A stretch of 64,000 bases of DNA from Myxococcales bacterium (lineage in GTDB: Bacteria > Myxococcota_A > Polyangia > JAAYKL01), in the NCBI GenBank assembly GCA_012522445.1, contig JAAYKL010000109.1, forward strand, positions 9,175 to 73,174. Direction: 5' to 3'. A program made the translations under genes and the position numbers. A model generated the notes under the pieces. The model worked only from the letters and a program-made list of their open reading frames with translations. It was not told where the DNA came from and made no database searches. This document shows, in pieces, positions 18,332 through 32,796 of this stretch (its first letter is position 1; each line of letters starts with the position of its first letter).

Positions 18332-19869
18332 CGAAATCGCTCGGGAATCTTTAATCCATCGTCTTTGGAGGGCGAGGCACTCGGTGACTGGGTGCCCTTT
18401 TTGGCGCGGGCGGGCTTGGATGGTTTCTTTGCCGCGGGCGCGGTGCCGGATTGCTTGGCCTGGGCGTTTTCCAAGTCGACGGTCACCAAAATGTCGCGGT
18501 TTTGCTCGGAGGGCGTCACGGTGGCCTCGGCGGAGACGCTGCCGATGCGCGCTGTCACCACCACCGGCTTGCCGCTGAGCATCTCCACTTCGCATGGCGC
18601 GCTGGAGCAAACCTGCCCCATACCGTCGATTTCAATGATGGCGCCTGCGGGCATGGAGCCTATCGTCACCGTCACTTTTTCGCGGTGTGCGTCGCGAATG
18701 GCGTCCATGGCCTGCAGCTCGGCCATCACTTCTGCCACGGTGGCCGACACCGGGCGCGACCCCTGGCCGTCATTGTCGGTTTGGGAAGCGGTGCCGAAAA
18801 AGAAATACACCACAGCGACCAACAGCAGCAAGGCGCCCGCCGCGGCAATAAGCATGTGTTTTTTTCTTGTGGCGCGCGCAGATGTCGCCGTGGGCACCGG
18901 TGTGGAGAGCGTGCGAAATTGGTGGATGCTGCGCAGGGACAGCGTGGAATCGCGATCGGGATGTGCGGTGATGTAGTTTTCGTCGGTGAGGGCCTTGGCC
19001 AGGTCAATTCGCAACGCCTTCATGTCGTCGTAGCGCTGGTCTGGGTCCTTGGCCATGGCCTTGTACACAACGGAAATCACAGAATCGGGGATGTTTTTGT
19101 CGGCGTCGAATTCGCGAATCGACGGGATGGGCTCAAACATGTGCTGAGTTAAAATCGCCATAAACGAATCGCCCTGGTACGGCACTTGGCCCGTGAACAG
19201 CTCAAACATAATGCAGCCCAAGGCGTAAACATCGACGCGGTGGTCCAAGGAACGGCCCGCCGCCTGCTCCGGGGACATGTATTCGGGTGTGCCGAAAATC
19301 ATGCCGGTTTGGGTCAATCGTTTGCCTTCGGTGCCAGCTTGGGTCACCTTGGCGATGCCGAAATCCAACACTTTGACAAAGTCGGGATAATCTTCTCGTT
19401 GCAGCAGAATGATATTTTCGGGTTTTAAATCGCGGTGCACCACCCCTTTGTCGTGGGCGGCCTGCAGTGCCTTGGCAATTTGATCGATAATGGACACCGC
19501 GCGGCCAAATGGCACGGGACCCGACTCGCAAAGCGCGGCCAAATCTTGGCCATCGAGCAACTCCATGGCAAAAAACAAACCGCCGTCGTCGAGCTGCCCA
19601 AAATCCGTCACATCGACAATGTGCGGGTTGCCAATGCGGCTCGCGGCGCGGGCTTCCTGGCGAAAACGCTCCACGATATCGGGTTTTTTGGAGAAATCGT
19701 CGCGCAACAGCTTTAGGGCAACGCGTTTTTCGATCTCGATGTGCTCCGCTGCATAAACGACGCCCATGCCGCCTTCACCGAGTTTTTCCAAAATGCGGTA
19801 GCGTTCGTGTACCACCGTTCCCAGCAGGGGATCTAGCGTCTCTATATCTGTATCTCCGCGCGAAACCAT
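18328..19869 (-). CDS. Hanks-type Ser/Thr protein kinase with TM segment and PEGA-like domain
   Basis: GEGGMGVVY, VALK, HRDLKPEN, DFG, GTPEYMSPEQ. TM helix, then SMPAGAIIEIDG. Confidence 0.93.
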   Translation of the reverse strand: MVSRGDTDIETLDPLLGTVVHERYRILEKLGEGGMGVVYAAEHIEIEKRVALKLLRDDFSKKPDIVERFRQEARAASRIGNPHIVDVTDFGQLDDGGLFFAMELLDGQDLAALCESGPVPFGRAVSIIDQIAKALQAAHDKGVVHRDLKPENIILLQREDYPDFVKVLDFGIAKVTQAGTEGKRLTQTGMIFGTPEYMSPEQAAGRSLDHRVDVYALGCIMFELFTGQVPYQGDSFMAILTQHMFEPIPSIREFDADKNIPDSVISVVYKAMAKDPDQRYDDMKALRIDLAKALTDENYITAHPDRDSTLSLRSIHQFRTLSTPVPTATSARATRKKHMLIAAAGALLLLVAVVYFFFGTASQTDNDGQGSRPVSATVAEVMAELQAMDAIRDAHREKVTVTIGSMPAGAIIEIDGMGQVCSSAPCEVEMLSGKPVVVTARIGSVSAEATVTPSEQNRDILVTVDLENAQAKQSGTAPAAKKPSKPARAKKGTQSPSASPSKDDGLKIPERFR

Positions 19870-19965
19870 GTCTCCATGATTCAATACAATTTGTGACCGC
19901 GCAATGCAAAATACCCACTGGATCACCGCCGAATGCGGGCATCACTTTTTTTTCGATTTTGAGAA

Positions 19966-20119: not shown

Positions 20120-22151
20120 ATCGGCGCGGACGTCCAGCGCGCCTTCTCTGCGGGCGAACCGCTTTTCCCGAAATGCCATACTGCTGCGCAATGCGGTTGA
20201 TTTCATCGCGCAACGCCGCGGCCTTTTCGAATTCCAGCGCCGCAGAGGCCACGAGCATCTCTTCGCGCAGCGCTTCGATGAGCATGGACGGATCCTCGCT
20301 CATCTCTCTTTTGTCAGGGCGTCTGGAGACCGGCGCATAGTCGCCTGTCGCCGCACCCGGACCGTATTCACTGGCATTGCGCACAGCGTTTTGCGGTGTA
20401 ATTTTATGCTCGGCGTTGTAGGCGAGCTGTTGCGCTCTCCGCGCCACCGTGATGTCGATGGCTTCTTTCATGGAACGAGTTATCGTGTCGGCGTACATGA
20501 TCACCTGGCCCGCCACATTGCGCGCCGCGCGGCCAATCGTTTGAATCAACGAGCGGCTGGAGCGCAAAAACCCCTCTTTGTCGGCATCGAGGATGCCCAC
20601 CAGCGAAACCTCGGGCAAGTCGAGACCCTCCCGCAGCAGGTTGATGCCCACCAAAACATCAAAGGTGCCCGCCCGCAACTCGCGCAAAATTTCCACCCGC
20701 TCGGTGGTGTCGATGTCGCTGTGCAAGTAGCGCACCCGGACCCCGATGTCGGTGTAATACTCCGTCAGCTCTTCGGCCATGCGCTTGGTGAGGGTCGTGA
20801 TCAAAACCCGCTCGTTTCGCTCGGCCCGAATGCGAATTTCCTCTAATAAATCATCTACTTGGCCAGTTACTGGGCGCACGATGATCTCGGGATCGACCAA
20901 CCCCGTGGGCCGGATGACTTGCGAAACGACATGCGGACCAGCGCGCTGCAGCTCGTATTCAGCCGGTGTGGCCGACACGTACACCACCCGACGCATGCGC
21001 TCTTCGAATTCCGCAAAGCGGAGCGGTCGGTTGTCCAGGGCAGATGGCAGGCGAAACCCGTACTCAACCAGGGTTTCTTTGCGCGATCGGTCGCCGCGGT
21101 ACATGGCGCCCACTTGGCTAACCGTCTGGTGGCTTTCATCGATGAAGAGCAGGTAATCGTCGGGAAAATAATCGAGCAGCGTCGCGGCGGGCTCCCCCTG
21201 CCCCCTCCCTTCGAGATGGCGCGAATAGTTTTCGATGCCCGCACAGTGCCCCGTCTCTTCTATCATCTCCAAATCGTACAGCGTTCGCTCTGTAAGGCGC
21301 TGTTTTTCCAGCAGTTTTCCCTGGGCGTCGAGCTCCGTCAACCGCACCTGCAGTTCGTCGCGAATGCGGGAGAGCGCCGCTTTCATTTTGTCTTGCGGCA
21401 TCACGTAGTGCGTGCCCGGAAAAAAGACCGCCTGTTTCAACGCGCCGAGTGTGTGCCCCCGCAGCGCGTCAAATTCGCTGATGCGCTCGACGGTATCGCC
21501 CCAAAACTCAATGCGAATACCCTTTTCGCTTTCGTGTACCGGGAAGACTTCGACGGTGTCCCCGCGCACGCGAAAGGTGCCCCGGGCAAAATCGGTGTCG
21601 TTGCGGTCGTATTGGATTTCCACCAACCGGCGCAGCAAATGATCGCGGCCGAACGCCTCGTCCTGCCGAATGGGGATAAGCATGTCGCGGTAATCCTCGC
21701 GGGCCCCGATGCCGTAAATGCACGACACAGACGCCACAACGATGACATCGCGGCGCGTGAGCAACGCACGGGTGGCGGCATGGCGCATGCGGTCGATGGC
21801 CTCGTTGATAGAGGCGTCTTTTTCGATAAATGTGTTGGTCGCGGGGACATAGGCCTCGGGCTGGTAATAGTCGTAATAACTGATGAAATACTCGACGGCG
21901 TTGTCGGGAAATAGCGCCTTGAGCTCGGCGTGCAATTGTGCCGCCAGGGTTTTGTTGTGCGCCATGACCAGCGTGGGACAATTCATGCGCTCGATGACGC
22001 TGGCCATCGTAAAGGTCTTTCCCGAGCCGGTAATGCCGAGCAACACTTGGTGCGCCAACCCATCCTCAAGACCTTGCACCAACGCCTCAATGGCGGCTGG
22101 TTGATCGCCTCGGGGCGCAAATACGCTTTTCATTTGAAATTTGTCTGTCAT
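20118..22151 (-). CDS. uvrB: Excinuclease ABC subunit B
   Basis: [40 protein letters not shown]-terminal UVR ([11 protein letters not shown]). Confidence 0.98.
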
Positions 22152-22176
22152 AAAATTCTTTCATATCCCAAAGGCC

Positions 22177-22402
22177 CGTGGACAATCTGTGGAAAAGTGT
22201 GGATTTTCTGCTGAAAAAAATGAACCTTTTGTGGACAAAATCCAGCGCCCCAAAATAAACCCAAAAAAAACATTTTTTCCCACGGGACAAACACAGCCCA
22301 AAACGCGGACAACCAACTGAAATCAAAACGTTTTTTTGTTTTTGTCCACATATTCACAGCCCCTTTCATTACTTGTTTTATTTAATAAATATTATATATA
22401 AA
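22177..22402. other. oriC: Probable chromosomal origin (oriC): DnaA boxes, IHF-like site, unwinding element
   Basis: DnaA-box-like 9-mers at 22177, 22188, 22198, 22230, 22342 (TTGTCCACA) plus TATTCACA 22351, then GCCCC and a ~40-bp almost pure AT tract. AATCAAAACGTTT at 22321. Directly upstream of dnaN. Confidence 0.75.
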
Positions 22403-22459
22403 GCAGCCAATGACATAAAAAAAGAGGTGCCGTTTCGCGCATCCCAAAGGACAAACGCC

Positions 22460-23602
22460 ATGGAAGCCATACTCTCAAAACATTGCTTTGTATCCGCGCT
22501 TTCTCGCCTCAGCGGCATCGCTGATCGCAAGAGCTCGATGCCCATTCTTTCCAACGTATACATTTCCACCGAAGGTTCGAGCAGCATCGTTTTTGCGGCC
22601 ACCGACCTCAACATTTCTGCCAGAGGTGTGTTTCCGGCACAAATTGTTCGTCCTGGCACCATCACATTGCCGGCCAAAACACTTCACGACATCGTTAAAA
22701 GTCTGCCCGAAGGCGACATCCTGCTGCGTGCTGAAGGCGACAGTGTCGAGGTGAGCAGCGGCCGTTCTAATTTTACGCTCCTCGGTTTGCCCGCCGAAGA
22801 TTTCCCCACGTTTCCCGACACCGTCGAAGTTGACTATCTAGAGTTCAACACCCAATTGTTGGGCCAATTGATCGACCGCACCTCTTTTTCGATTTCCAGC
22901 GACGAGTCGCGGCCGCATTTAAACGGCGCGCTTTTTCAAGGGGATGCCAAAATTTTGCGCATGGTAACCACCGATGGACATCGCTTGTCCAAGGCCGAGT
23001 TCAAAGCTGAAGAGACGGGGTTTTACAATTTCTCGCACGTCGTGTCCCACAAGGGCATTTTGGAGCTGCGGCGCTTGCTCGACGACAGCTTGTCCGTGAT
23101 CTCCATGGGCTTTCACGCGGGCACCCTGTTTGTGAAACGCACCCTCGAGGTCGAAAAACCCGTCGAAGGCGAACCCACGCCCACCGCCGAATTTGTGTTG
23201 GCCTCCAAGCTCGTCGAGGCCGAATTTCCCTCATATGACCAAGTCATTCCCAAGGGCATGGAGCGCGAAGTCATCGCCCCGCGGGTCGCCCTTCTCGAGT
23301 CGCTGCGGCGTATTTCCATTGTCTCCCCGGATCGCAACATGGCGGTAAAATTTGCCATCTCCGAAGGCAGCATTGAAATATCCTCCAACAATCCCGCTGT
23401 GGGCACCGCCGTTGAAGTCATTGATGTCACTTACGATGGCGACGAAGTCGAAATCGGTTTTAACGTGCGCTATTTCGCCGACGCCCTGAGCGTTCTCTCC
23501 GACGACGAAGTGAAACTCGAGCTCTCCGGTGCGCTAGACCCGGCCGTAATTAACGATCTCGAAAAGACATTTGTCGGTGTGATCATGCCCATGCGAATTT
23601 GA
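22460..23602 (+). CDS. dnaN: DNA polymerase III beta sliding clamp
   Basis: PILSNV, ATDL, TTDGHRL, IGFNVRYF, C-terminal IMPMRI. AAGGA RBS. Confidence 0.97.
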   Translation: MEAILSKHCFVSALSRLSGIADRKSSMPILSNVYISTEGSSSIVFAATDLNISARGVFPAQIVRPGTITLPAKTLHDIVKSLPEGDILLRAEGDSVEVSSGRSNFTLLGLPAEDFPTFPDTVEVDYLEFNTQLLGQLIDRTSFSISSDESRPHLNGALFQGDAKILRMVTTDGHRLSKAEFKAEETGFYNFSHVVSHKGILELRRLLDDSLSVISMGFHAGTLFVKRTLEVEKPVEGEPTPTAEFVLASKLVEAEFPSYDQVIPKGMEREVIAPRVALLESLRRISIVSPDRNMAVKFAISEGSIEISSNNPAVGTAVEVIDVTYDGDEVEIGFNVRYFADALSVLSDDEVKLELSGALDPAVINDLEKTFVGVIMPMRI

Positions 23603-24699
23603 TGCCCCAAAACACCCTCTCCAAAGTCCAAATCGATTCGCTTTCCCTCGTTCAGTTTCGCAACATCGCCCGTGCCGAGTTCGCGCCATCTCCTCGGTTC
23701 AATGTCATCTCTGGGCGCAATGGCATGGGAAAAACGAATTTGATCGAATCGATTTATTTGCTGGGCGCGCTGCGTTCTTTTCGCACATCGGTGCGCCGCG
23801 AAATCATTTCGCAAGGAGAGCGAGACGCCAAAATCAGCGCTCGTTTTGGCCAATCGCTGCACGGGCTGTCGGTGGAGATTCAATTGGGCGCCCAGGGCCG
23901 ACAAATATCCATGGATGGCAAGGCGGTGGTGCCGGATGGCGATTATTTTCGAACGCTTCCCATGGTGCTCTTTCATCCCGGCAACATGGAGCTGGTGCAA
24001 GGGGCTCCCGAGACGCGGCGGCGCTTTCTCGATCGCGCGCTGTTTCAAGCGGACGCGGCGTATCCGCAATTGTACCGCCAGTATGCGCGTGCCCTAGCCA
24101 ATCGCAACACGGTGATTCGCCGGCAACCGCTGGACATGCGCGCCCTGGTGCCGTTTGACAGCGCCTTGGCCAAACTAGGCAGTCAAATCGTTGCGTCGCG
24201 CGCTGCCTTTACCGCGCAGCTCAGTCAGTTTTTTGAAGAGGGCGTGCTGGAGGTGAGCGGCGGCAATCGCGGGGCCATTCGCTATCGCCCACGGGTGAGC
24301 GGCGACGAGGCGGCTTTTTTGCAAGTCCTCGATGCCAAGCGGCAACTGGACGTCGATCGGGGCTACACCACGTGCGGGCCCCACGCGGACGATCTCGACT
24401 TTGAAGTGGATGGGCGATCGGCCAAAAAATACGCGTCACAGGGGCAGCAGCGAACGGTGGTGCTGGCCGCGAAAATTGCCGAGACGCGCGTCCTGTCGCA
24501 GCGGTGTCACCGCATGCCGTTGCTGTTGCTCGACGATGTTTCTTCCGAGCTCGATCGCGATCGAAATCGCCATTTGTTTTTGTTTTTATCGGGCGTGGGC
24601 GGCCAAGTGTTTATTACGACGACCCATCCCGATCACATATCGACCAGCGGAGAGCGAGCGGATTTTTGCGTGACAAACGGAGCGCTTTCTTCGTTGTAA
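23602..24699 (+). CDS. recF: DNA replication and repair protein RecF
   Basis: FRN, GRNGMGKTN, RRRFLD, GPHADD, SQGQQR, LLLDDVSSELD. Confidence 0.96.
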   Translation: MPQNTLSKVQIDSLSLVQFRNIARAEFAPSPRFNVISGRNGMGKTNLIESIYLLGALRSFRTSVRREIISQGERDAKISARFGQSLHGLSVEIQLGAQGRQISMDGKAVVPDGDYFRTLPMVLFHPGNMELVQGAPETRRRFLDRALFQADAAYPQLYRQYARALANRNTVIRRQPLDMRALVPFDSALAKLGSQIVASRAAFTAQLSQFFEEGVLEVSGGNRGAIRYRPRVSGDEAAFLQVLDAKRQLDVDRGYTTCGPHADDLDFEVDGRSAKKYASQGQQRTVVLAAKIAETRVLSQRCHRMPLLLLDDVSSELDRDRNRHLFLFLSGVGGQVFITTTHPDHISTSGERADFCVTNGALSSL

Positions 24700-24730
24700 T
24701 GATGGAAAGCGTTACCAGTAAGGAGCGAGG

Positions 24731-25783
24731 TTGGTGAACAAAGTATCGTTTGCCCATTGGGCGCTGTGCGGGGTGGCGTTGTTGTGGTGCGGGTGCGCCA
24801 AAAAAGACGCGCCGCGCGAGGCGGTTTCTGCGGACGGCAGTACGGAGCAAGTTGAGCGCGTGCAGCCCGCTGCTGCGCCGTCTTTAGCGATGGCCAACCC
24901 AACCGATGTGGAAACCGATGTGGACACTGGGGCGCCCGGCGGGGTGTCCGATGCGGCGCGCGCCGATACCGCAGAGGTTGCCGGCGACGCTGACGACGCA
25001 TCGGTACTGCACATGCTGCAACACGAACCCATCGTCAAAGCTGCGATTTTGTCGCGGCGCTCTTTGGCGCTCAAGCTGTCCTTTAAAAACGGCACCCATG
25101 CGGCGTTCAAGCCCATTCGGCTCGACAACGAGACAGCGCGATACGAGGCAGCGTTTTACCGCTATGCCAAATTGTTGGGCATTCCCGGCGTGCCCCCATC
25201 GACCATGCGTCGCCTTTCATTTGCCCAGCTAGAGCGCTTCGTCGCGCGCCAAAATCCCGAATTGGCCGAACGCCTGAAAAATGAATTGGCGGTGGACCGC
25301 GCCGGTCGGGTGGCGGGGGCGGTCATTCAGTGGGTGAACGACATGCAGCCTTCGGGCTTGGACGAGAAAGACAGCATTTTGCCAGAACTGCTGTCGCAGC
25401 CCAGCGCGCATCCCCTGTCTCGCGCCGCCGTAGAGATGGTCGTGATCGATTATACCGGCAGCAACTGGGATCGCTACACCGGCGGCAATTTGTTTGTGCT
25501 AGACGAGGGGACAAAACTCGTGCTCCTCGACAACGACAACGCCTTTTCCCGGCTCTCCGAACGGCAGTTTGAGCGGCTCGAAGACAGCGTCGCCGCCCTG
25601 CAATGGATACCCAGCGACTTGTTGGCCAAAATAACGGCGTTGGATGCGGCGCAAATTGCCGAGGCAGTGGCGTGCGAAGATTGCGATATGACACTGCTGT
25701 ATTCGGGCGAAATTGAACGCATCCTGGCGCGCCGGGATTTGTTTTTGGCGCAAAAAAAGTCGCTCCAGCGGCAAGCGCCATAG
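24731..25783 (+). CDS. Lipoprotein with FAM20/Four-jointed-like atypical kinase domain
   Basis: LWCGC lipobox. LKLSFKNGTHAAFKP, EAAFYRYAKLLG..VPP, DYTGSNWDR, LVLLDND. Confidence 0.7.
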   Translation: MVNKVSFAHWALCGVALLWCGCAKKDAPREAVSADGSTEQVERVQPAAAPSLAMANPTDVETDVDTGAPGGVSDAARADTAEVAGDADDASVLHMLQHEPIVKAAILSRRSLALKLSFKNGTHAAFKPIRLDNETARYEAAFYRYAKLLGIPGVPPSTMRRLSFAQLERFVARQNPELAERLKNELAVDRAGRVAGAVIQWVNDMQPSGLDEKDSILPELLSQPSAHPLSRAAVEMVVIDYTGSNWDRYTGGNLFVLDEGTKLVLLDNDNAFSRLSERQFERLEDSVAALQWIPSDLLAKITALDAAQIAEAVACEDCDMTLLYSGEIERILARRDLFLAQKKSLQRQAP

Positions 25784-25852
25784 CAAGGGAATGTTTCACC
25801 ACCAGGGCACAGGATGGCGCATCGCCATGCCCGCCACCGAGGAGCCACACGC

Positions 25853-26587
25853 ATGAAGGACGGCAGCGCATTACAGCAGTGGAAGAGCGATCAATACGCC
25901 TTAAACAAACTGTACGTTCACGATTTTAAAAATCCGCTCTCTGTTGTGATGGCCAATCTCTCTTATTTTGAAGCGATTTTGGATCCAGCCGATGAAGACG
26001 CGCGTGCCGCCCTCGACGATTCCATGATGGCGCTGCAGCAGCTCTTGCACATGTATGAAAACTTTTTGTGCATTTCGCAGATGGAGGCCGGTGACATGCC
26101 GCCCCGCTCCGCGGTTTCGGTGGCGCAACTGGTCCAGGCTGCTTTAGAGCGGCTTCAGCGCGTCAATGCCTGGCCGGATGCGGAGATTTTGCTGTGCGGC
26201 GATGTTCCCGACGCCACCTGCGAGTGGCCCATCGATTGCGTTCGCGTCGCGCTCGACAACATGTTGTTCACCGCACTGCAGCACGCCCGCAGCCCCAAGA
26301 AAGTGCATTTTTCCGTCGCCATAGATGACGCGGCGCACCACGTGGTCTTTGCGTGCGAAGACAATGGCATTCCGATTGCCGCGGCGCATTGCGATGTGTC
26401 GTTCGAACGCACTTTTCAGCCCCAGGCGAAACATTTGGCACACGCGCGTTACGGCCGCGCCATGGCCATGTACGCCATCGGTTTGGCGGCGCAGGCATGC
26501 GGTGGAACGGCGCGTGCAGAAACGAGCGCCCGTCAGTGGTCGCGCATCGCCTTGGTGCTGCCCCTGTCCTTGCCGTCATCGCCGTAA
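25853..26587 (+). CDS. Sensor-less histidine kinase-like protein (DHp plus degenerate HATPase)
   Basis: H-box VHDFKNPL. N-box LDNMLFTALQH, DNGIPI, G2 region GRAMAMY. GAGGAG RBS. Confidence 0.75.
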   Translation: MKDGSALQQWKSDQYALNKLYVHDFKNPLSVVMANLSYFEAILDPADEDARAALDDSMMALQQLLHMYENFLCISQMEAGDMPPRSAVSVAQLVQAALERLQRVNAWPDAEILLCGDVPDATCEWPIDCVRVALDNMLFTALQHARSPKKVHFSVAIDDAAHHVVFACEDNGIPIAAAHCDVSFERTFQPQAKHLAHARYGRAMAMYAIGLAAQACGGTARAETSARQWSRIALVLPLSLPSSP

Positions 26588-26589
26588 CC

Positions 26590-27165
26590 ATGTGCGCTTG
26601 TCCCCACGTCCGTCGGGCCCGTAGATTTGGGTGCGCGTGGCTCGCGTTGGCGATATGGCTTTGCAGTGCGGCGGCCTGGGCCTGGAGCGAGGAGCGCCCC
26701 CCGCTGCGCCGAGAAGGCCTGGTCATGGGATTGGATCCCGGGCTGGTCCTGCGGCATGTCGACGACGAGTGGAAATTGTTTGCGCGATTGAATCTGCGCT
26801 TTGCGGGCTGTATCGGTCCGCGCGTGCAGATGGGGGTGGATTGGCGCATGGAAATTTTCACCGCTGGCCAGGGCAGCAATGTGCCCAACCGCCACGAAAT
26901 CGGTCCGGTGCTGACCGTGTTTGCGCACAAGGGGTGGTTTTTTCGGTTTTACAGCCATGTTGGCGCGCTGCATCCCTTTCGCGTCACGGTGGGCGCGGGC
27001 ACCGGATACGAGTGGTCGTTGGGTCGGTTCACCGGTATGGGCGTGGCGGTGGGCGGCGATGTCGACATCTTGTTTACGGGTGCGCCCCCTCCGGCCCAGG
27101 CTGTTTTTGTGGTTTGGCACCTCTCGGCATATGATTTGAAGACGCGGCGCGGTCGCGAGGACTGA
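26590..27165 (+). CDS. Small secreted, probable outer-membrane beta-barrel protein
   Basis: Signal peptide ending AWA, then alternating amphipathic strands (VGAGTGYEW, GVAVGGD). Confidence 0.55.
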   Translation: MCACPHVRRARRFGCAWLALAIWLCSAAAWAWSEERPPLRREGLVMGLDPGLVLRHVDDEWKLFARLNLRFAGCIGPRVQMGVDWRMEIFTAGQGSNVPNRHEIGPVLTVFAHKGWFFRFYSHVGALHPFRVTVGAGTGYEWSLGRFTGMGVAVGGDVDILFTGAPPPAQAVFVVWHLSAYDLKTRRGRED

Positions 27166-27250
27166 TCTCGAATCGTTGTGTTTTGAAAACAATTCCAGTA
27201 AAGTCTAGGGATATTTATTTTTCATAACGACACGAGAGAAAGGCCGTCCG

Positions 27251-29026
27251 ATGAACCGGTTGTTATATCGCCATACTGTCGCATTTTTGGTTGCCTTAAT
27301 TTTGCTTTTTCCCATGCACTCCTTTGCCGCCGACAAGCCGCTGCTGCGATCCGGCCAAGGCATGTCGCACAGCCTTTTTGATCCCGCCGTAGATACCAAG
27401 GGGCATTTTACGATGGATGGCAGCGCCGTGCTGCCGCACCTGTCATTTTCTCTCGGGTTGATGCTCGACTTTGGTTTCAACAACTGGGTGTCGGTCGAGC
27501 AAGACGGCTTGTCCTACACGCACGAAAACGCCACCATTGAGGCATACAACAAAGCGGTCATTGAACGCTTGATCACGGCGCGTTTCATCTTCAACTTTGG
27601 CTTGCTCAACCGCTTGGCCGTCGGTTTGCAAATCCCCATCGTGGTACCCACCGGCACATTTTACCAAGTCATGCCGCAAAACACGGCGGCATCCATTTGG
27701 GAGGTCGAGGGGTCGCATTGGTCGAGCAAGGGCAGCTTTGGCGACATCGGATTGCACGTCAAAGCCAGCGTCTTTCGCTCGGACTGGCATCCGGTAGGCC
27801 TCGCGTTTATCGCCCAATACCTCATCCCGTCGGGCAAGTCCGAGTTTTTCAGCGGAGAACCCGGTGGCGGCGCCTTTGTCTTGAAGGCCATTTTCGACGC
27901 CGAACCCGCGCTCTGGTATCGCCTTGGTTTAAATGTGGGTGTGCGATTGCCGCTGGGTGCGAAAAAAGAGAACTACCACAACTGGAACGAAAGCTCGTTT
28001 CCCGCATCCTTTCCGCCACCGCCGGAGCTGTTGCTGTTTGAATATGGCCCCATGCTGTATTTCGGCCTCGGGCAGAGCTTCAACATTTGGGAAAACATTA
28101 TGGACTTCGTCGTGGAGGTGTATGGCAACCACATGATCAACCGCATGAGCGATTTGCCCTATCTGTCGCTGGAGGCCAACGCGGGCTTTAAGGTGTTCAT
28201 CGAAGAGAGCTCGTACTTAATGGCGGGCTATGCCCATGGCATTCCCACCGGGGCCACCGATTCCAACTACGGCTTTCAAAGCATGGAGCACCGCTTTTTT
28301 CTCGGCTTCTCCTACGAGCCGTCCATTCCCATTCGCATCAAAGACACCGATATGGACCGCGATGGCGACGGCATTCCCGATCATTTGGACGATTGCCCCG
28401 ATGAACCCGGTCCGCCCGAAAACAATGGCTGCCCCGAAAGCGACATGGACGGCGACGGCGTTCCCGATCACCTCGACAAGTGTCCGCTGGTGCCCGGCGA
28501 CCCTGCCAATCACGGCTGCCCCAAAGCGTTTGAAGCCAGCGCCGAGGCAGAGGTTGCGGAGGCCGATCCCCCGCCGCCGCCGCCCAGCGGAGACGTGGTG
28601 GTGGCCAACAGCTCGCTCATGATTCTCAAAAAGGTAAACTTTGAAACCGCTTCGGACAAAATTTTGCCCGAATCGTTTGGCATCCTCGACGAAGTGGCCA
28701 AGACCATCCAAGACAACCCGCAGCTCACCGCCATCGAAGTACAGGGCCACGCCGACGAGCGCGGTTCGGACAATTACAACCTCGGCTTGACCAAGCGCCG
28801 TGCGGCGGCCGTGCGCAAATACCTCATCGATAAAGGGGTGGATCGCGGTCTCCTGAAATCGCAGGGATATGGCGAGTACTGCCCGCTGGACCCGGCGAGC
28901 AACGAAGAAGCCTGGGAAAAGAACCGGCGCGTCGAATTCAAAATTGTCGAGATCAACGGCAAGCCCACGGGCGTCAAGTGCGGTTGTGCGGCCGCCGAAG
29001 CCCGCGGTGTGCGCTCCGCTTATTGA
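27251..29026 (+). CDS. OmpA-family protein: N-terminal barrel, thrombospondin type-3 repeats, OmpA domain (TraB-like architecture)
   Basis: Signal peptide. DRDGDGIPDHLDDCP and DMDGDGVPDHLDKCP. GHADERG, GYGE, NRRVEF. Confidence 0.88.
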   Translation: MNRLLYRHTVAFLVALILLFPMHSFAADKPLLRSGQGMSHSLFDPAVDTKGHFTMDGSAVLPHLSFSLGLMLDFGFNNWVSVEQDGLSYTHENATIEAYNKAVIERLITARFIFNFGLLNRLAVGLQIPIVVPTGTFYQVMPQNTAASIWEVEGSHWSSKGSFGDIGLHVKASVFRSDWHPVGLAFIAQYLIPSGKSEFFSGEPGGGAFVLKAIFDAEPALWYRLGLNVGVRLPLGAKKENYHNWNESSFPASFPPPPELLLFEYGPMLYFGLGQSFNIWENIMDFVVEVYGNHMINRMSDLPYLSLEANAGFKVFIEESSYLMAGYAHGIPTGATDSNYGFQSMEHRFFLGFSYEPSIPIRIKDTDMDRDGDGIPDHLDDCPDEPGPPENNGCPESDMDGDGVPDHLDKCPLVPGDPANHGCPKAFEASAEAEVAEADPPPPPPSGDVVVANSSLMILKKVNFETASDKILPESFGILDEVAKTIQDNPQLTAIEVQGHADERGSDNYNLGLTKRRAAAVRKYLIDKGVDRGLLKSQGYGEYCPLDPASNEEAWEKNRRVEFKIVEINGKPTGVKCGCAAAEARGVRSAY

Positions 29027-29051
29027 GCGTCCCCCACCCCTCCCACTCGTT

Positions 29052-30440
29052 TCACGTCTCGTTTTTTTCCCGCATGTCTTTTTTGCCGAGCCTCGCCAGG
29101 CGGCGTTCGCTGGCTTCCTCGCCTTCGGCTTCCTGCGCGGACCGGGCGTGGACGATGGCCTGTGCGTAATCTTTGAGGCGGTGTTCAAAGTCTTTGGCCA
29201 GGGCCAGGTGGGCCGCCGCGTCGTCGGGATAACGCGCGACCAGGTTTTGCCAGGCTTGATGGGCGGTGTCAGCGTCGCCGCTTCTGCGGGCTTGCCGCGC
29301 CAATAGGTGCCACGCGACCTGGCGTTCGTCGGCGTCGTCTGCGACTTCGGCCCGGTGCAAGTGGGCAAAGCCCCGGGCGCTGTGTCCCGCGTGAAAGGCC
29401 GACTGGGCCAACCCCAGGTTGTCGGCGGCGTGGGCCACGGCCTCGGGATCGTTGTACATATTTTCCAATACGCCCCCGAGCGCTGCCAGGGCGATCAGGT
29501 CGAGCGCATTGTGTTCGAAGACGCGCACCATATCGGCGGCCTCACCCGTGCGCAGGTAGTGGGCGTACACCGCGGGAATTTGGGCGCCGGGGATGTCGCC
29601 TTGTCGGCGGAAACCCAAGATGACGTCTTCGAGGTTGTTGAGGCTGCGATTGGCCAAGCGACGCGAGAAGATGCGGCGGGCCACGTGCAGCAAATCGACG
29701 TGCGGCAGTTTCACCCCGGGATTGGGGGCGCGGTTGAGGATGCAGCGCGTATTGATGAGGGGCAAATCGAAGGCCCGGCCGTTAAAGGAAACCAGGTGCG
29801 TGGCGCGGGCCATGTGGTGGCGCAGGCGTTCGAGTTGGGCGGGCTCTTCGCTGGGATCGCGACAAAATATCTGCTCGACGACAAAGGTGCGCGATGCGGT
29901 AAACCAAGCGACGCCGATGAGGAAGGGCAAGGTGCCTGTGCCGCCGGAGAGTCCGGTGGTTTCGGTGTCGATAAACAGGGCGCCTTCGGGGGATAAATCG
30001 GCGATGCGCGCATCGCGACACAGGGTGGCCAGGCCGTGGCCCGTGGTTAAAAAGGTGTGAATGGGGACGTCGCCATGGTGGTGTCCCGCATCAAAATGCG
30101 GCTGGTGGCACCAGACTTCGCCCATGGCGGTGTCGATGACCTCGCCGGGAAGCGCGGTGTCGACCGATGGTGTCCGGGGCGGCGCCTCGGCGGTGTCGGT
30201 GTTGCGCGGGGGTGACTCCGGTGATGTGGCGTGCGGCTGGGTGCGGGCTTCAATGCGCTTCATGCGCTGGCGCAGCTCCGCGATCAAGCTCGTTTTGTCC
30301 ACCGGTGTGGTCGGTGCGTCTGCGCCCCCGGCCCCGGAGAGCGTTTCGGTGGCATCGCCGAGGGTTTGATTTGCCTCCGGTGTTGCGGTCGTGTCGGGGG
30401 TGGTGCGCCGCTTGAGCCGGGATTGCAGTTTAGTCGCCAT
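29052..30440 (-). CDS. mrfB: YprB/MrfB-like RNase H-fold (DEDDh) exonuclease with TPR
   Basis: FIDTETTGL, SFNGRAFDLP, HVDLLH, HNALD, C-terminal TPR (LAKDFEHR). Overlaps the helicase gene. Confidence 0.8.
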   Translation of the reverse strand: MATKLQSRLKRRTTPDTTATPEANQTLGDATETLSGAGGADAPTTPVDKTSLIAELRQRMKRIEARTQPHATSPESPPRNTDTAEAPPRTPSVDTALPGEVIDTAMGEVWCHQPHFDAGHHHGDVPIHTFLTTGHGLATLCRDARIADLSPEGALFIDTETTGLSGGTGTLPFLIGVAWFTASRTFVVEQIFCRDPSEEPAQLERLRHHMARATHLVSFNGRAFDLPLINTRCILNRAPNPGVKLPHVDLLHVARRIFSRRLANRSLNNLEDVILGFRRQGDIPGAQIPAVYAHYLRTGEAADMVRVFEHNALDLIALAALGGVLENMYNDPEAVAHAADNLGLAQSAFHAGHSARGFAHLHRAEVADDADERQVAWHLLARQARRSGDADTAHQAWQNLVARYPDDAAAHLALAKDFEHRLKDYAQAIVHARSAQEAEGEEASERRLARLGKKDMREKNET

Positions 30441-32796
30441 GCACCACCACCAAGTGCGCCGCGATGCGCGCCGCGATGTCTTTGAGGTTGTGGTGGGCGG
30501 GCACGGGCAGCGGGCCGATGCACGCGGGACAGCCGTCGGGGCACGGACAACCCCGGATGAGGGTTTGGGCATCGGAGAACAGGAGCGAGATGGACGCAAA
30601 GGCGCGTTCCATCAGACCGGCGCCGCCTTCGTGGGTGTCGTAGAGGTACAGGGTAACCGGTGGCGGTGTGGGCGAGGCTGTGGCATCCGGGTCGAGGGCT
30701 GCGGTTTCGGCATGGATGGCGTCGGGCGCATCGAGATGTGGCCCTTGCAGCAGCGTGGCGATGTCGCGCGGATCGGCCATGAGCCGCAGGGCCGTCACTT
30801 GGTGCAGGGCGTGTCGCAGGCCATCTAGGGCTAGGGGCGTAATGTCGGGAGGCCAATCGCGCAACGCGTGCTCGTGCAGTTGCACCCAGACCGCTTCGGT
30901 TTCCATTTGCAATGGCGGCAAGGAGACCTCGTCGTAGCCGAGGTTTTCGTGGGTGCGGAATTTGATTTTTTTACACCCTACCACGTTTTCGACCACGCTG
31001 ACGTCACCGATGAAAATGGTGCCGCCGGGCCCGTCGGTGGTGGCGTGCGTCGCCAGCGGTGCGATGCGGCTCTGGGCCACGGCTGTGGTGTAGTAAACGG
31101 GTGGCACCGGAGAGACCCAAGCCTTGCTCGCGGCGGGATCAAAGCGCTGCACCTCAAACGTTTCGCCCTCGTGTTGGTAAATGGCGTGGTCGAAGAGCTC
31201 GAAATGGGCGGCGCGCCAGGCCACTTCGGCCAAGGGCTCACCGCTCTCTTGTTGCACCACCACCACGGGATTGCCCACGTCGCGCAAGCTCACCTGGGCC
31301 GCCGGATATGCGCTGCCGATGTAGTGATAGCGACCGTTGCGCAACACCAAATCGGATTCGGCGGTGAGGCAGGAGAGGGCGGCGTCGGTGTCTTCAATGC
31401 CCAAGGTGCCGAAGCGATCGGTGGTGGCAAAGGGAAGCTCGAAGGCAGCACAGCGCAGGTGGGCGAGCAAGATGGTGACATTGTCGGGTTGCACCAGGGC
31501 GACCTCGGGGGTGCTGTGCAACAGATAGGCGGGCTCGCGGGCCAGGAATTGATCGAGGGGCGCGTTGCCGGCGATGAGCACCGCCAGGGACGGGGACTGG
31601 CGTCTTCCGGCACGTCCGGCGCGTTGGTGGGTGGCGGCGATGGTGCCGGGGTAGCCGCACAACAGCACGGCGTCTAGCGCGCCCACATCGATGCCCAGCT
31701 CCAGGGCGTTGGTGGCCACCACCGCGTCGACGTCGCCCTGCTGCAGAGCGGTTTCGATTTCGCGTCGCAACAGGGGGAGATAACCGCCGCGATAGCCGCG
31801 GATGCGCCCGGGATCGCCGCCGTTTTGCCGCACTTTGTCGCGCAGGTATCGCAGCACAATTTCGACGCCGCGCCGCGTTTGGCAAAAGATGAGCGAGGTG
31901 ACGCCGGCCAACACCAGGTCGGCCCCCATGCGTGCGGCGATGCGGTGTGCCGAAGCGCGGATGCCCATCACGGGGTCGACGACGGGCGGGTTGAAGAGCA
32001 CGAAAGTGCGCGTGCCAGTGGGCGCGGTGCTTTTGTCGATTAAGGTGGTGGGTGCGCCGAAGAGCGCCTCGCCGAGTTCGCCGGGATTGCCGATGGTGGC
32101 GGAGCAGCCAATGAAGATCGGCCGGGCGTTGTAAAACCCGCAGACGCGTTGCAATCGCCGCACCACATTGGCCACATGGGAACCGAAAATGCCGCGATAG
32201 GTGTGCATTTCGTCGACCACCACGTGGGTGAGGCCCGCCCAAAACTGCGCCCACGCCGTGTGATGGGGCAAGATGCCGGTGTGGAGCATGTCCGGATTGG
32301 TGATGATGATATGGGCTTCGGTGCGCGCCTTGCGCCGGACATCGCCCGGGGTGTCGCCATCGTAGACCACGGTTTTGAGATCGGCGCCGCATAGATCGAT
32401 GAAGCGCCGTATGGTGCTCTCTTGGTCGCGGGCCAAGGCCTTGGTGGGAAAGAGCAGCAGCGCCCTGGCCGAGGGCCGGGATAACAGGCGCGCGACAATG
32501 GGCACGATGTAGGCCAGGGATTTTCCCGAAGCCGTGGGGGTGGCGATGACCGTGGCACGCCCAGCGGCAATGCTGTTCCAGGCATCCACCTGGTGTTGCC
32601 ACGGAGAGGTGATGCCCAAAGACGTCATCGCTTGCAAAATGGGGATGTCGATCCACTCGGGGAAGCGTGCGGTTTGGCCCGGGGTGGGGTTGGTGGTTTC
32701 TTGGGCGCAAAAATCGCCGGAAATGCCGCCGGCGCGCCAATGGGCGACAACGGTATAAATGTCGTCGCTCGTCGCGTTGCCCGTACGGCGCGTCAC
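30430..32796 (-). CDS. mrfA: YprA/MrfA (Hrq1-like) DEAH helicase with DUF1998
   Basis: TPTASGKS, TNPDMLH, DEMH, SATIGNP, QRAGRAGR, C-terminal CPCPDGCPAC. GTG start in a GTGA overlap. Confidence 0.88.
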   Translation of the reverse strand: MTRRTGNATSDDIYTVVAHWRAGGISGDFCAQETTNPTPGQTARFPEWIDIPILQAMTSLGITSPWQHQVDAWNSIAAGRATVIATPTASGKSLAYIVPIVARLLSRPSARALLLFPTKALARDQESTIRRFIDLCGADLKTVVYDGDTPGDVRRKARTEAHIIITNPDMLHTGILPHHTAWAQFWAGLTHVVVDEMHTYRGIFGSHVANVVRRLQRVCGFYNARPIFIGCSATIGNPGELGEALFGAPTTLIDKSTAPTGTRTFVLFNPPVVDPVMGIRASAHRIAARMGADLVLAGVTSLIFCQTRRGVEIVLRYLRDKVRQNGGDPGRIRGYRGGYLPLLRREIETALQQGDVDAVVATNALELGIDVGALDAVLLCGYPGTIAATHQRAGRAGRRQSPSLAVLIAGNAPLDQFLAREPAYLLHSTPEVALVQPDNVTILLAHLRCAAFELPFATTDRFGTLGIEDTDAALSCLTAESDLVLRNGRYHYIGSAYPAAQVSLRDVGNPVVVVQQESGEPLAEVAWRAAHFELFDHAIYQHEGETFEVQRFDPAASKAWVSPVPPVYYTTAVAQSRIAPLATHATTDGPGGTIFIGDVSVVENVVGCKKIKFRTHENLGYDEVSLPPLQMETEAVWVQLHEHALRDWPPDITPLALDGLRHALHQVTALRLMADPRDIATLLQGPHLDAPDAIHAETAALDPDATASPTPPPVTLYLYDTHEGGAGLMERAFASISLLFSDAQTLIRGCPCPDGCPACIGPLPVPAHHNLKDIAARIAAHLVVVHGD

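Follow-up and report, generated by a model that had tools for sequence, protein, structure and literature searches.

A putative lipoprotein of a Myxococcales bacterium carries a minimal kinase domain related to the animal Fam20 family

Results

The window, that is, the whole stretch of 64,000 nucleotides analysed from a contig of a Myxococcales bacterium (JAAYKL010000109.1), contains a gene for a putative lipoprotein with a Fam20-like kinase domain (Table 1). The open reading frame is as the original prediction had given it, and translation from its TTG codon yields 350 residues. Upstream lie dnaN (22373-23602) and recF (23599-24699), again as described before. This neighbourhood is specific to this genome: dnaN-recF and the barrel and OmpA genes were nearby in none of the related loci (0/20). 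The gyrB gene, in whose usual place the lipoprotein gene was said to sit, was found elsewhere in the genome, on contig C88, where it scored 957 bits and thus passed the cut-off. The neighbour called a TraB-like OmpA protein does have OmpA and TSP_3 domains, but its TraB score of 165.9 bits falls far under the cut-off of 700 bits. The open reading frame described as a small barrel had no Pfam match. The one described as a pseudo-HK is above the cut-off for HATPase_c, but stays just under that for HisKA (26.9 bits).

Table 1. Coordinates of the lipoprotein gene, its predicted parts and its partner gene in the window
Feature	Position	Strand	Basis or remark
Shine-Dalgarno-like AAGGAG	24720..24725	+	Read from sequence; 5 nt upstream of TTG
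Fam20-like lipoprotein gene (putative)	24731..25783	+	TTG start, 350 aa plus stop; ORF list and translation
Signal peptide and lipobox, residues 1-22, predicted lipidated Cys22	24731..24796	+	Sequence MVNKVSFAHWALCGVALLWCG-C
Low-complexity Ala/Asp/Glu-rich linker, residues 23-87	24797..24991	+	pLDDT <50; variable in the relatives and not aligned
Minimal Fam20-like kinase domain, residues 88-350 (263 aa)	24992..25780	+	AF2 model, fold and profile matches
K127, predicted ATP-binding beta3 Lys in FKP	25109..25111	+	K 121/133, R 10; aligns with FAM20C FKP Lys
E139, predicted alphaC Glu	25145..25147	+	E 132/133; aligns with Glu of FAM20C NAEIAAF
Catalytic-loop block D240-x4-N245-W-D247-R248-x4-N253	25448..25489	+	Aligns with FAM20C FDFLMGNMDRH
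D267, predicted metal-binding Asp (DFG-equivalent) in LLDN	25529..25531	+	D 132/133; aligns with FAM20C LDNGRGF Asp
Histidine-kinase-like (HK-like) partner gene (small, soluble, atypical)	25814..26587	+	HATPase_c 32.5 and HisKA 26.2 bits; conserved neighbour

The stop codon of recF (24697-24699) lies upstream of both the Shine-Dalgarno-like sequence and the TTG. In an independent DNA run the gene was intact and differed at 6 synonymous and 2 non-synonymous positions. A scan of 22000-29400 gave 3 promoter-like sites, compared to 2.7 expected, and 10 terminator-like sites, compared to 11.3 expected; counts so close to expectation did not inform the operon structure. In one metatranscriptomic library, three short contigs fell inside the gene and others on the HK-like partner, which is a weak hint only, because such a library may contain DNA. 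In the RNA cover of run X18, parts of the stretch, recF included, were without a contig, and the uncovered parts prove nothing. The runs X19 and X20 gave one contig each, outside the gene.

The N-terminal lipobox reads L-W-C-G-C22; its residues at -2 (C) and -1 are small, and the W at -3 is atypical. Lipoboxes were read from the sequence by the strict pattern [LVI][ASTVI][GAS]-C. Cys22 is invariant in an alignment of four sequences (A1), in which the three relatives carry canonical lipoboxes. Among 121 relatives starting with Met, 109 have a hydrophobic N-terminus and 64 fit the strict lipobox pattern, and more distant family members carry a hydrophobic N-terminal segment or anchor with no lipobox. 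The N-terminal export signal, announced earlier as a lipobox followed by an Ala/Asp-rich linker, is thus a trait of the family. The pLDDT of the linker derives from a full-length AlphaFold model on a 4-row alignment with an overall pLDDT of 48.9, and this model was kept out of the fold searches.

The imperfect lipobox leaves room for a cytoplasmic protein, in which the hydrophobic stretch would be non-functional or the start codon wrong, and the kinase would act inside the cell on its HK-like neighbour. ATP is present there, and the conserved partner is itself soluble and free of a signal peptide. We consider this very improbable, because family members repeatedly (109/121) have a hydrophobic N-terminus with a Cys and a low-complexity linker behind it, the Shine-Dalgarno sequence precedes the TTG that includes the signal, and the distant members have a hydrophobic anchor instead. 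We predict that the protein enters an export pathway through its lipoprotein-type signal, as a bacterial counterpart of the entry of Fam20 into the secretory pathway.

In the following domain, the motifs LKLSFKNGTHAAFKP (K127), YEAAFYRYAKLLGIPGVPP (E139), GAVIQW (putative hinge), EMVVIDYTGSNWDRY (D240 and D247) and LVLLDNDNAF (D267) were all found, in the order in which the original prediction had quoted them. Conservation was counted in an alignment of 133 diverse relatives (A2). In the catalytic block D240 and R248 are present in all 133 sequences, and N245, D247 and N253 in 131 each. W201 is also kept in 133/133, and at the position of K115 in 'LKL', 121/133 have K or R. Loss of the Lys/Glu/Asp/Asp set among homologs, which would have spoken against a kinase, was not seen (K127 in 121, E139 in 132, D247 in 131 and D267 in 132 of the 133 sequences). 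A HMMER alignment places the blocks in register with FKP, AEIAAF, FDFLMGNMDRH and LDNGRGF of FAM20C, in agreement with the FAM20C motifs quoted in the original prediction. D267 follows D247 by 20 residues, a spacing that is equal in the FAM20C alignment, and N253 is without a counterpart in the aligned FAM20C block.

Searches with the single sequence were empty in Pfam and NCBIfam even at E <= 1, and phmmer against the PDB gave an unrelated protein as its best match (E 0.39); a word-based protein search returned 4 matches only. A profile of four sequences matched FAM20A (E 3.7e-7) and FAM20C (E 2.9e-5) in the PDB. With the A2 profile, the E-values were 5.7e-21 for FAM20C, 8.5e-18 for FAM20A, 1.3e-17 for DrFam20C1, 1.8e-14 for C. 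elegans Fam20 and 7.6e-12 for a Fam20B-type xylosylkinase. Fam20 was the sole significant family in the PDB, the next kinase being PI4KII-alpha (E 0.22), and each Fam20 match consisted of two collinear stretches in the N-lobe and the C-lobe. The Pfam Fam20C model PF06702 (cut-off 26.8 bits) was not reached by the protein, which gave no match at E <= 1, nor by its domain at E <= 0.01, and nothing was found with it in this genome. However, one relative (P0129) clears the cut-off with 28.6 bits, and among 101 genomes sampled from the class 17 pass, compared to none of 14 control genomes.

The AF2 model of residues 88-350 has a pLDDT of 95.6 and a pTM of 0.93. When Foldseek was run with this model, ranks 1-28 were all Fam20 entries, with E down to 1.8e-9 and TM by query of 0.59-0.76, and PI4KII-alpha came next after Fam20 with a TM by query of about 0.6. 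VIA-align, a structural aligner independent of Foldseek, gave Z-scores of 21.8 for DrFam20C1, 21.5 for hydra Fam20 and 21.2 for C. elegans Fam20, with 252-255 of the 263 residues aligned at 3.2-3.3 A; a fourth Fam20 entry scored 18.5. The scores of other families were 17.2 for PI4KII-alpha, 15.0 for CtkA, 12.4 for CotH, 12.3 for actin-fragmin kinase, 11.9 for HipA and 9.6 for the Legionella effector kinase MavQ. The proposed resemblance to Fam20C was borne out, since Fam20 is the best family by both structural methods and the sole significant PDB profile match. Judged by profile and predicted fold, the 263-residue domain is a true homolog of the Fam20 kinases of the animal Golgi and secretory pathway, and its family is the closest prokaryotic relative of Fam20 among those found.

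The family is large, uncharacterised and mainly from Myxococcota. It comprises 1401 representatives at E <= 1e-3, of which 228 reach E <= 1e-30, and matches were present in 32 of 41 related genomes and in at least 79 of the 251 genomes of a phylum sample, mostly with one to three gene copies per genome. The named records with related loci all have Myxococcota titles and the source names seen were all 'hypothetical protein'; these loci had been chosen by one exact motif, GNWDRFSG, so the uniform titles do not give the full range. The nearest clusters in the ESM Atlas are bacterial and mostly from Myxococcota, with related clusters also in Acidobacteriota and Pseudomonadota. One cluster bears the automatic name Fam20 domain protein and 90% of its members carry PF06702, so bacterial proteins with a Fam20C domain are already partly visible in Pfam-based annotation. 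Full-text literature searches, with subscription journals outside their scope, returned no prior description of the bacterial family. No longer fused form was found among proteins of 780-2225 aa at E <= 1e-5, which is weak evidence for their absence. Two long matching frames in another class (L115, 1206 aa; L116, 932 aa) had no Pfam domain and thus gave no clue to the substrate.

The HK-like gene comes immediately after the kinase gene, on the same strand, in 56 of the 73 loci having room for it; within the taxonomic family it lies downstream in 10 of 13 loci. Comparison with homologs makes the ATG at 25853 its likely true start. All partners (29/29) share the H-box V-H-D-x-x-N-P without change, whereas an equally invariant R-Y-x-R stands in place of the G2 box and the second Gly of the G1 box is absent. 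The Asn of the N-box is replaced by T, A, C, S or Q in the 10 closest partners and kept in the larger subfamily. No signal peptide or transmembrane segment was visible in the sequences of the partner proteins. In a distant subfamily, an MFS transporter gene follows in 4 of 7 loci of the same class, and it overlaps the stop codon in L027 and L031.

Discussion

We suggest that the protein is an exported, lipid-anchored and active Fam20-like phosphotransferase, and we give this reading a probability of roughly two in three. A Sec-type lipoprotein signal with Cys22, together with the flexible acidic linker, would tether the kinase domain to the membrane on its periplasmic side. The phosphotransfer site appears complete, with an ATP-anchoring Lys127 paired with Glu139, a catalytic Asp247 and Asn253 and Asp267 as putative metal ligands. 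From such a complete site, nucleotide-metal binding and phosphate transfer are expected, and the domain may bind a nucleotide-metal complex and pass the phosphate to a hydroxyl of an extracytoplasmic substrate. Protein Ser/Thr would be the leading candidate for this substrate, although at somewhat less than even odds; a glycan would come second, and a lipid or small molecule would be an outside candidate.

In most members, the kinase gene forms a two-gene module with that of the small soluble HK-like protein, in which the His is invariant and the ATP lid degenerate. The pairing hints at a signalling link between a kinase and a two-component-type protein, and no current model predicts such a link. 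The interpretation of the original prediction is partly supported overall, in that its computational checks came out in its favour and none of the outcomes named as refuting it was observed, but it leaves unexplained this cytoplasmic-looking partner, the sole conserved neighbour (56/73). Since the partner lacks an export signal, a functional coupling across the membrane would be unexplained as well. To our knowledge, the bacterial periplasm has no ATP pool, which leaves an extracytoplasmic kinase without an obvious donor. If it is true that these bacteria phosphorylate outside the cytoplasm, periplasmic ATP or another phosphate supply is needed, and none is currently known.

Animal Fam20 proteins (the Golgi casein kinase Fam20C, the xylosylkinase Fam20B and the pseudokinase Fam20A; PF06702) have in common with the bacterial domain an atypical kinase fold over nearly the whole domain, and the FKP Lys, the alphaC Glu, the D-x-x-x-G-N-x-D-R block and the L-D-N Asp in register. 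Both also have an N-terminal export signal, the location of the bacterial protein outside the cytosol being a prediction. However, the identity is only 13-18%, and the bacterial core has 263 residues, compared to about 350-430 in the solved Fam20 chains. The animal proteins are type II Golgi or secreted proteins, whereas the bacterial one has a predicted lipid anchor and its gene is paired with that of the HK-like protein. In the bacterial domain, Cys occupies any one column in at most 13 of the 133 sequences, and 66 of the 133 domains are free of Cys; without conserved cysteines, the family does not have the Fam20 disulfide pattern. Such disulfides are described for Fam20A and Fam20B in a Fam20 review. 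The bacterial beta3-alphaC loop has 11-12 residues and is without the Mn-coordinating Glu of Fam20C. At this position, 5 residues before E139, the family has P (45), R (23), Q (15) or G (8), and the loop is without any D or E in 57 of 133 sequences; printed alignments have ERHNAE in FAM20C and QRHNAE in FAM20A. The protein is therefore not a full Fam20, but a minimal core with no Mn-coordinating Glu and no conserved cysteines, and with an Asn in the catalytic loop instead.

The same review states that the Mn-coordinating Glu is essential in Fam20C and that its replacement by Gln makes Fam20A a pseudokinase. The bacterial fold could accordingly serve a use other than phosphotransfer, as a pseudokinase, a nucleotide sensor, or a transferase of AMP or another group like SelO and SidJ. 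The review notes that some kinase folds 'transfer molecules other than phosphate', and a protein that only binds would be less affected by the absence of ATP in the periplasm. We nevertheless regard such a use as quite improbable. Near-invariant D247, N253 and D267 (131, 131 and 132 of 133) form the pattern expected of an active transferase, and a mere binder usually lets such residues drift. Canonical kinases and those of the PI3/4-kinase type work with an Asp/Asn/Asp set and no extra Glu. We assume that N253 compensates for the absent Glu, which would keep the protein an active phosphotransferase.

An exported kinase of the same fold could instead act on a sugar or a lipid head group, in exopolysaccharide, LPS or the membrane lipid near the anchor, as Fam20B does with xylose on proteoglycan linkers and PI4KII with membrane lipid. 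This is possible, but we consider it unlikely. The Fam20B-type hydra xylosylkinase matches the model like Fam20C does (Z 21.5 compared to 21.8), with a TM by query of 0.75 and the highest TM by target (0.58), and the MFS transporter gene of the distant subfamily (4/7 loci) would suit such a substrate. The profile, however, favours FAM20C and FAM20A over the xylosylkinase (5.7e-21 compared to 7.6e-12), and the general neighbourhood survey showed neither glycosyltransferase nor polysaccharide-export genes as conserved neighbours.

PI4KII-alpha, whose fold ranks second (Z 17.2 and 16.6 over 231-234 aligned residues), adds to the case for a lipid substrate. It is lipid-attached to the membrane, as is predicted for the bacterial protein, and the catalytic loop of PI3/4-kinases has an Asp and then an Asn, as in the bacterial family. 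However, it is cytosolic and eukaryotic, its profile match was not significant (E 0.22-0.45) and its Z-score lies clearly below those of Fam20. The Pfam matches to PI3_PI4_kinase (PF00454) were weak and confined to 11 of 133 members. As the family of record for the bacterial domain, PI3/4-kinase was rejected on the grounds of these profile E-values and of the fold (Z 17.2 compared to 21.8).

Fam20 kinases perform most of the phosphorylation of secreted animal proteins; their phosphotransfer prefers Mn2+ or Co2+ and is directed to Ser (S-x-E) or to xylose. Our results suggest that this animal family has close bacterial relatives and that phosphorylation of extracytoplasmic targets may occur in some bacteria. 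What emerges is a large and conserved family of bacterial Fam20 homologs with an apparently intact active site, its own predicted export signal and a simpler core, and both the origin of the secretory-pathway kinases and extracytoplasmic phosphorylation in bacteria become directly testable questions. The Fam20 review speaks of a family 'conserved in animal kingdom', and a 2022 kinome survey treats the FAM20 cluster as eukaryote- or Metazoa-specific. It has been proposed repeatedly that Myxococcota gave genes to eukaryotes; a 2026 preprint names FAM20B, and not FAM20C, in its list of possible contributions. Together with a remark in the review that Fam20B is 'arguably the ancestral Fam20', this listing would favour a sugar kinase over a protein kinase.

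It is tempting to go further and to see here the first dedicated bacterial system of extracytoplasmic phosphorylation, in which envelope or secreted proteins or glycans would be modified in the periplasm or at the surface with exported nucleotide, and which would be wired to the cytoplasm through the HK-like partner. The same family would then represent the prokaryotic stock of the animal Golgi kinases (Fam20, perhaps Four-jointed and PI4KII). This combined proposal is tentative, and we hold it to be rather less probable than its opposite. The idea of a prokaryotic stock fits the sister relationship of Myxococcota and FAM20B that the 2026 preprint notes in passing. For the study of catalysis, the minimal domain of 263 residues, free of disulfides and glycans, should be easy to express and could serve as a model for the catalytic mechanism of Fam20.

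Among bacterial kinases, CotH of the Bacillus spore coat is also an atypical kinase that acts on structural proteins of a surface layer, and it does so inside the mother cell, not after export. Its fold is related (Z 12.4, 208 residues) but far more distant from the bacterial domain than Fam20 (Z 21.8), at the level of the superfamily only, and neither the Pfam scans nor the profile search of the PDB gave a match to CotH. PMC12189002 presents CotH as a bacterial kinase similar in sequence to Fam20C, without a DFG-type metal motif and with the adenine sandwiched between two aromatics; the family described here, by contrast, retains the L-D-N Asp.

HipA and HipA_2 (PF20613) are bacterial kinases of the same broad superfamily (Z 10.4-11.9). 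Weak HipA_2 matches around the catalytic loop occurred in 62 of the 133 members at E <= 0.01, with none for the protein of the window, and no HipA chain was found at E <= 1 in the PDB profile search. Unlike the bacterial Fam20-like family, HipA proteins act as toxins in the cytoplasm and have antitoxin partners. In three members that were examined, the HipA_2 matches covered 45-60 residues with 15.9-20.1 bits, and HipA_2 was rejected as the family of record on account of these short matches under the cut-off of 27 bits.

The HipA kinship, together with CtkA and MavQ, bears on a last alternative, in which the lipoprotein is a weapon or effector that is delivered by outer-membrane vesicles or membrane exchange and acts in the cytoplasm of another cell, like HipA-type toxins and secreted bacterial kinases. 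The target cytoplasm has ATP, so the problem of the donor would be solved. Many Myxococcota live as predators and export lipoproteins in vesicles. CtkA, a secreted proinflammatory protein of Helicobacter pylori, is a small exported kinase and the third-best structural family (Z 15.0, 207 residues), followed at a distance by the HipA toxins (Z 10.4-11.9) and MavQ (Z 9.6). CtkA acts in host cells, is not known to be a lipoprotein and has no detectable sequence relationship to the bacterial family. Weak HipA_2 matches are present in 62/133 members, but those examined are short and under the cut-off. We find such a role improbable. Toxins are typically variable and linked to immunity genes, whereas this gene is widely conserved, occurs mostly in one to three copies per genome and is stably paired with the gene of a regulator-like protein. 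Genes for secretion or immunity were not among the conserved neighbours, and the changes in the strain comparison were mostly synonymous.

A bacterial homolog of Fam20 kinases

The Fam20-like gene has the extent and strand that the original prediction gave it, with a TTG start and 350 codons in the ORF list and translation, and the ribosome-binding sequence AAGGAG can be read with its end 5 nt upstream of the start. Its product opens with 22 signal-like residues, of which the last four are W-C-G-C22, continues through an Ala/Asp/Glu-rich linker of about 65 residues that is disordered in the model, and ends in a domain of 263 residues. As a single sequence, the window protein matched no Pfam or NCBIfam model and no PDB chain. 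A profile built from four relatives of the first search matched FAM20A (3.7e-7) and FAM20C (2.9e-5) in the PDB along two collinear stretches, the N-lobe and the C-lobe. The exhaustive profile search returned 1401 cluster representatives with E up to 1e-3; the count falls to 605 when E is limited to 1e-10 and to 228 at a limit of 1e-30. We then used an alignment of 133 sequences, with the window domain as its first row and 132 of the 150 relatives listed, the omitted ones being mostly short fragments. Its profile matched FAM20C (5.7e-21), FAM20A (8.5e-18), zebrafish Fam20C1 (1.3e-17), C. elegans Fam20 (1.8e-14) and a Fam20B-type xylosylkinase (7.6e-12); the first non-Fam20 kinase was PI4KII-alpha, at E 0.22.

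The AlphaFold2 model from this alignment is confident (pLDDT 95.6, pTM 0.93). When it was compared with the PDB by Foldseek, Fam20 entries filled ranks 1-28 and PI4KII-alpha came next. A second structural aligner, independent of Foldseek, compared 48,161 representative chains and gave Z scores of 21.8, 21.5 and 21.2 for Fam20 entries (252-255 of 263 residues, 3.2-3.3 A), 18.5 for human Fam20C, 17.2 for PI4KII-alpha, 15.0 for CtkA, 12.4 for CotH, 12.3 for actin-fragmin kinase and 11.9 for HipA. Sequence profiles and structural comparison concur, and the resemblance to Fam20 that the original prediction proposed was correct; the Fam20 profile matches and the best structural alignments support the homology part of that interpretation. 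On this profile and model evidence, the domain is a homolog of Fam20 kinases, and the bacterial family is a Fam20 homolog, not a full member of Fam20.

We read the protein as an exported and catalytically active phosphotransferase, with a probability of about 0.7; it would be a kinase that is tethered to the membrane and transfers phosphate. The Fam20B-type structure matches the model as well as Fam20C does, and a Fam20 review calls Fam20B arguably ancestral. Both points favor a glycan or lipid kinase, which we hold to be possible, if doubtful.

The active site and departures from Fam20

Over the 133 aligned sequences, D240 and R248 are kept in all, E139 and D267 in 132, and N245, D247 and N253 in 131; position 127 is K in 121 and R in 10. 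HMMER places the conserved residues of the bacterial family opposite the FAM20C blocks FKP, NAEIAAF, FDFLMGNMDRH and LDNGRGF, in which we take the corresponding residues to be K285, E311, D458 and D478. Asn253, which is nearly invariant and follows the catalytic Asp by six residues, has no equivalent in the FAM20C block aligned with it; it resembles the Asn that canonical and PI3/4-type kinases have in their catalytic loop.

Three features that define Fam20 are absent from the family. The Mn2+-coordinating Glu is described in the Fam20 review as essential in Fam20C and as replaced by Gln in the pseudokinase Fam20A, and in the printed profile alignments this site is five residues before the alphaC Glu. 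The bacterial family lacks this Glu, having P, R, Q or G in the column, and its beta3-alphaC loop has only 11-12 residues, without any acidic residue in 57 of the 133 sequences. In contrast to Fam20, it also has no conserved Cys column (66 of the 133 domains contain no Cys), and its domain falls short of the solved Fam20 chains by about 100-150 residues. Judged from these sequences, we take the family to be a minimal kinase, probably active, with Asn and Asp as its metal ligands, as is usual in kinases. It is quite improbable that the kinase fold, with the residues counted here, is used for a purpose other than phosphotransfer.

Occurrence of the family

Among 41 related genomes 32 carry the gene, as do 17 of 20 within the window's own taxonomic family. 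Of 251 genomes sampled from the phylum, 79 or more have it, a floor because the first look was stricter. Named genomes were scanned for GNWDRFSG as an exact motif, which yields a sample selected by motif; 94 loci were confirmed, of which 80, all from MAGs, were kept. The titles of 77 read Myxococcota, Polyangia, Polyangiales, Sandaracinaceae, Polyangiaceae, 'Myxococcales' or 'Deltaproteobacteria'/'delta proteobacterium', and the remaining three read 'uncultured bacterium' alone.

Source records label the family's proteins 'hypothetical protein', and some relatives are already flagged by databases. With the Pfam Fam20C model, relatives were detected in 29 of 101 genomes sampled from the class, and its cut-off was passed in 17 of these 101 versus none of 14 control genomes; one relative, P0129, scored 28.6 against the cut-off of 26.8. 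The model had no match in the window's genome; among 11 genomes of the family to which it belongs, 10 gave none. The ESM Atlas places the window protein in a bacterial cluster of 1069 members, 11% of which carry PF06702, and also lists a bacterial cluster of 258 members auto-named 'Golgi casein kinase, C-terminal, Fam20 domain-containing protein'. Because of these matches, bacterial Fam20-domain proteins are partly visible in databases already.

Our full-text search of literature open without subscription found no printed description of a bacterial Fam20-like family. The Fam20 review treats the family as animal, and a Legionella kinome survey describes the FAM20 cluster as eukaryote- or Metazoa-specific. 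A 2025 review (PMC12189002) gives CotH as the bacterial kinase that resembles Fam20C. A 2026 preprint places FAM20B among possible Myxococcota contributions to eukaryotes and calls the signal 'not always unequivocal'. A minimal, exported and apparently active relative of Fam20, widespread within a single bacterial phylum, would be unexpected to specialists; with it, the origin of secretory kinases and phosphorylation outside the bacterial cytoplasm both come within reach of testing.

A different study contributed an independent DNA run that contains the whole locus; its copy of the gene differs from the window's by six synonymous and two non-synonymous changes (T242I, V256A). One metatranscriptomic library gave three short contigs within the gene and one within the histidine-kinase-like (HK-like) gene that follows it; this is a hint only, because such libraries can contain DNA. 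DNA nearly identical to window positions 23599-27200 occurs in metagenomes from anaerobic digesters, bioreactors, landfills and biogas fermenters. At least half of the sampled words of this segment were found in each of six studies, the possible source study excluded, and the near-identity was confirmed in sequencing run X3. At 3.12 Mb and 88% completeness, the assembly that carries the window is small by the standards of its phylum.

Probable export and the phosphate donor

A strong hydrophobic N-terminal stretch is present in 109 of the 121 relatives that start with Met. The strict lipobox pattern is met by 64 of them, and several that fail it have a small-residue-Cys box visible by eye. Cys22 is invariant in a close alignment of four sequences, and distant members of the same class have an N-terminal hydrophobic segment without Cys. 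These N-termini strongly suggest that export is a trait of the whole family; a cytoplasmic protein with mispredicted export is highly improbable.

We know of no periplasmic ATP pool, and the phosphate donor is therefore the chief difficulty for an exported kinase. A second difficulty is that its conserved partner, the HK-like protein, appears to be cytoplasmic. The protein might instead be an effector delivered into another cell and active there, which we consider unlikely.

The neighboring genes

In the window, dnaN, recF, the Fam20-like gene, the HK-like gene, an unassigned ORF and an OmpA gene follow each other on the forward strand, and this setting had been emphasized in the original prediction. 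We searched 9 kb on either side of the homolog in 20 relatives for the window's neighbors, and dnaN, recF, the ORF and the OmpA gene were near it in none. Since gyrB is found elsewhere in the window's genome, a position 'where gyrB usually is' carries no meaning. The protein called TraB-like has an OmpA domain, but its match to the TraB 'outer membrane exchange' model reaches only 165.9 bits against a cut-off of 700, and it is therefore no TraB equivalog. Read from its first start codon, the ORF named 'small barrel' overlaps the 3' part of the HK-like gene.

In 10 of 13 same-family loci the HK-like gene follows downstream and shares the strand, nine times within 600 nt and once at 1.7 kb. A profile of ten partners was run on the 80 named loci, 73 of which had at least 700 nt of downstream room; the gene lies within 600 nt downstream in 56 of these 73, often after a gap of 27 nt, and is divergent and upstream in two more loci. 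It is absent from all seven loci of other families in the class. The partner has about 235 aa and lacks both a signal and a TM segment. The H-box reads V-H-D-x-x-N-P in every one of 29 sequences, and an invariant R-Y-x-R replaces the G2 ATP-lid box. The N-box Asn is also replaced in the window's subfamily, and the label 'pseudo-HK' is fair. The invariant His suggests that the partner may still take part in phosphotransfer.

Within a distant subfamily, an MFS_1 transporter gene is just downstream of the Fam20-like gene in four of these seven loci. It overlaps the Fam20-like stop codon in L027 and L031, and a HEAT-repeat gene intervenes in L032. The Fam20-like proteins of this subfamily have an N-terminal hydrophobic anchor and no lipobox. 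The transporter may hint at the supply of substrate or donor.

Coordinates of the genes and loci discussed
Feature	Location	Strand	Remarks
811-aa protein	window 15896-18331	+	transglutaminase-like core, TPR repeats
Hanks-type Ser/Thr protein kinase, canonical	window 18328-19926	-	Pkinase 1.1e-48, C-terminal PEGA domain
Fam20-like gene	window 24731-25783	+	
HK-like gene	window 25814-26587	+	
ORF named 'small barrel'	window 26353-27165	+	signal-like stretch; no Pfam match
591-aa protein	window 27251-29026	+	C-terminal OmpA domain, thrombospondin type 3 (Ca-binding) repeats
DEAD/DEAH helicase and exonuclease pair	window 29052-30599 and 30430-32838	-	Pfam; genes overlap
Distant-subfamily loci with MFS_1	L027:7661-8992, L030:6351-7616, L031:7754-8992, L032:11017-12291		
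Redoxin-domain genes	L026:10122-11228, L029:10125-11306		upstream of Fam20-like gene
Long frames, another class	L115:789-4406, L116:1505-4300		1206 aa, 932 aa

Other genes and proteins

The Hanks-type kinase is 5 kb upstream of the Fam20-like gene. In the helicase and exonuclease pair, the helicase has MrfA Zn-binding and HRQ1 winged-helix domains and is directly upstream of the exonuclease, which belongs to the RNase_H_2 superfamily and has TPR repeats; we take the pair to resemble the MrfA/MrfB-type DNA-repair pair. The redoxin-domain genes of two distant loci encode proteins that end in an AhpC/TSA-redoxin (thioredoxin-like) domain.

Two long frames from another class of the phylum enclose matches to the kinase profile, and no Pfam domain was found in either; several genomes of that family have comparable frames, about 1260 aa long. 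The ESM Atlas cluster of the relative P0198 contains proteins of about 615-629 aa, mostly from Pseudomonadota, with a calcineurin-like metallophosphoesterase domain. The sequence match of P0198 to the kinase family is weak (E 3.7e-4), and the predicted structure of a second region in these proteins aligns to the kinase domain with a TM of 0.60 over 253 residues; they may be kinase-phosphatase fusions.
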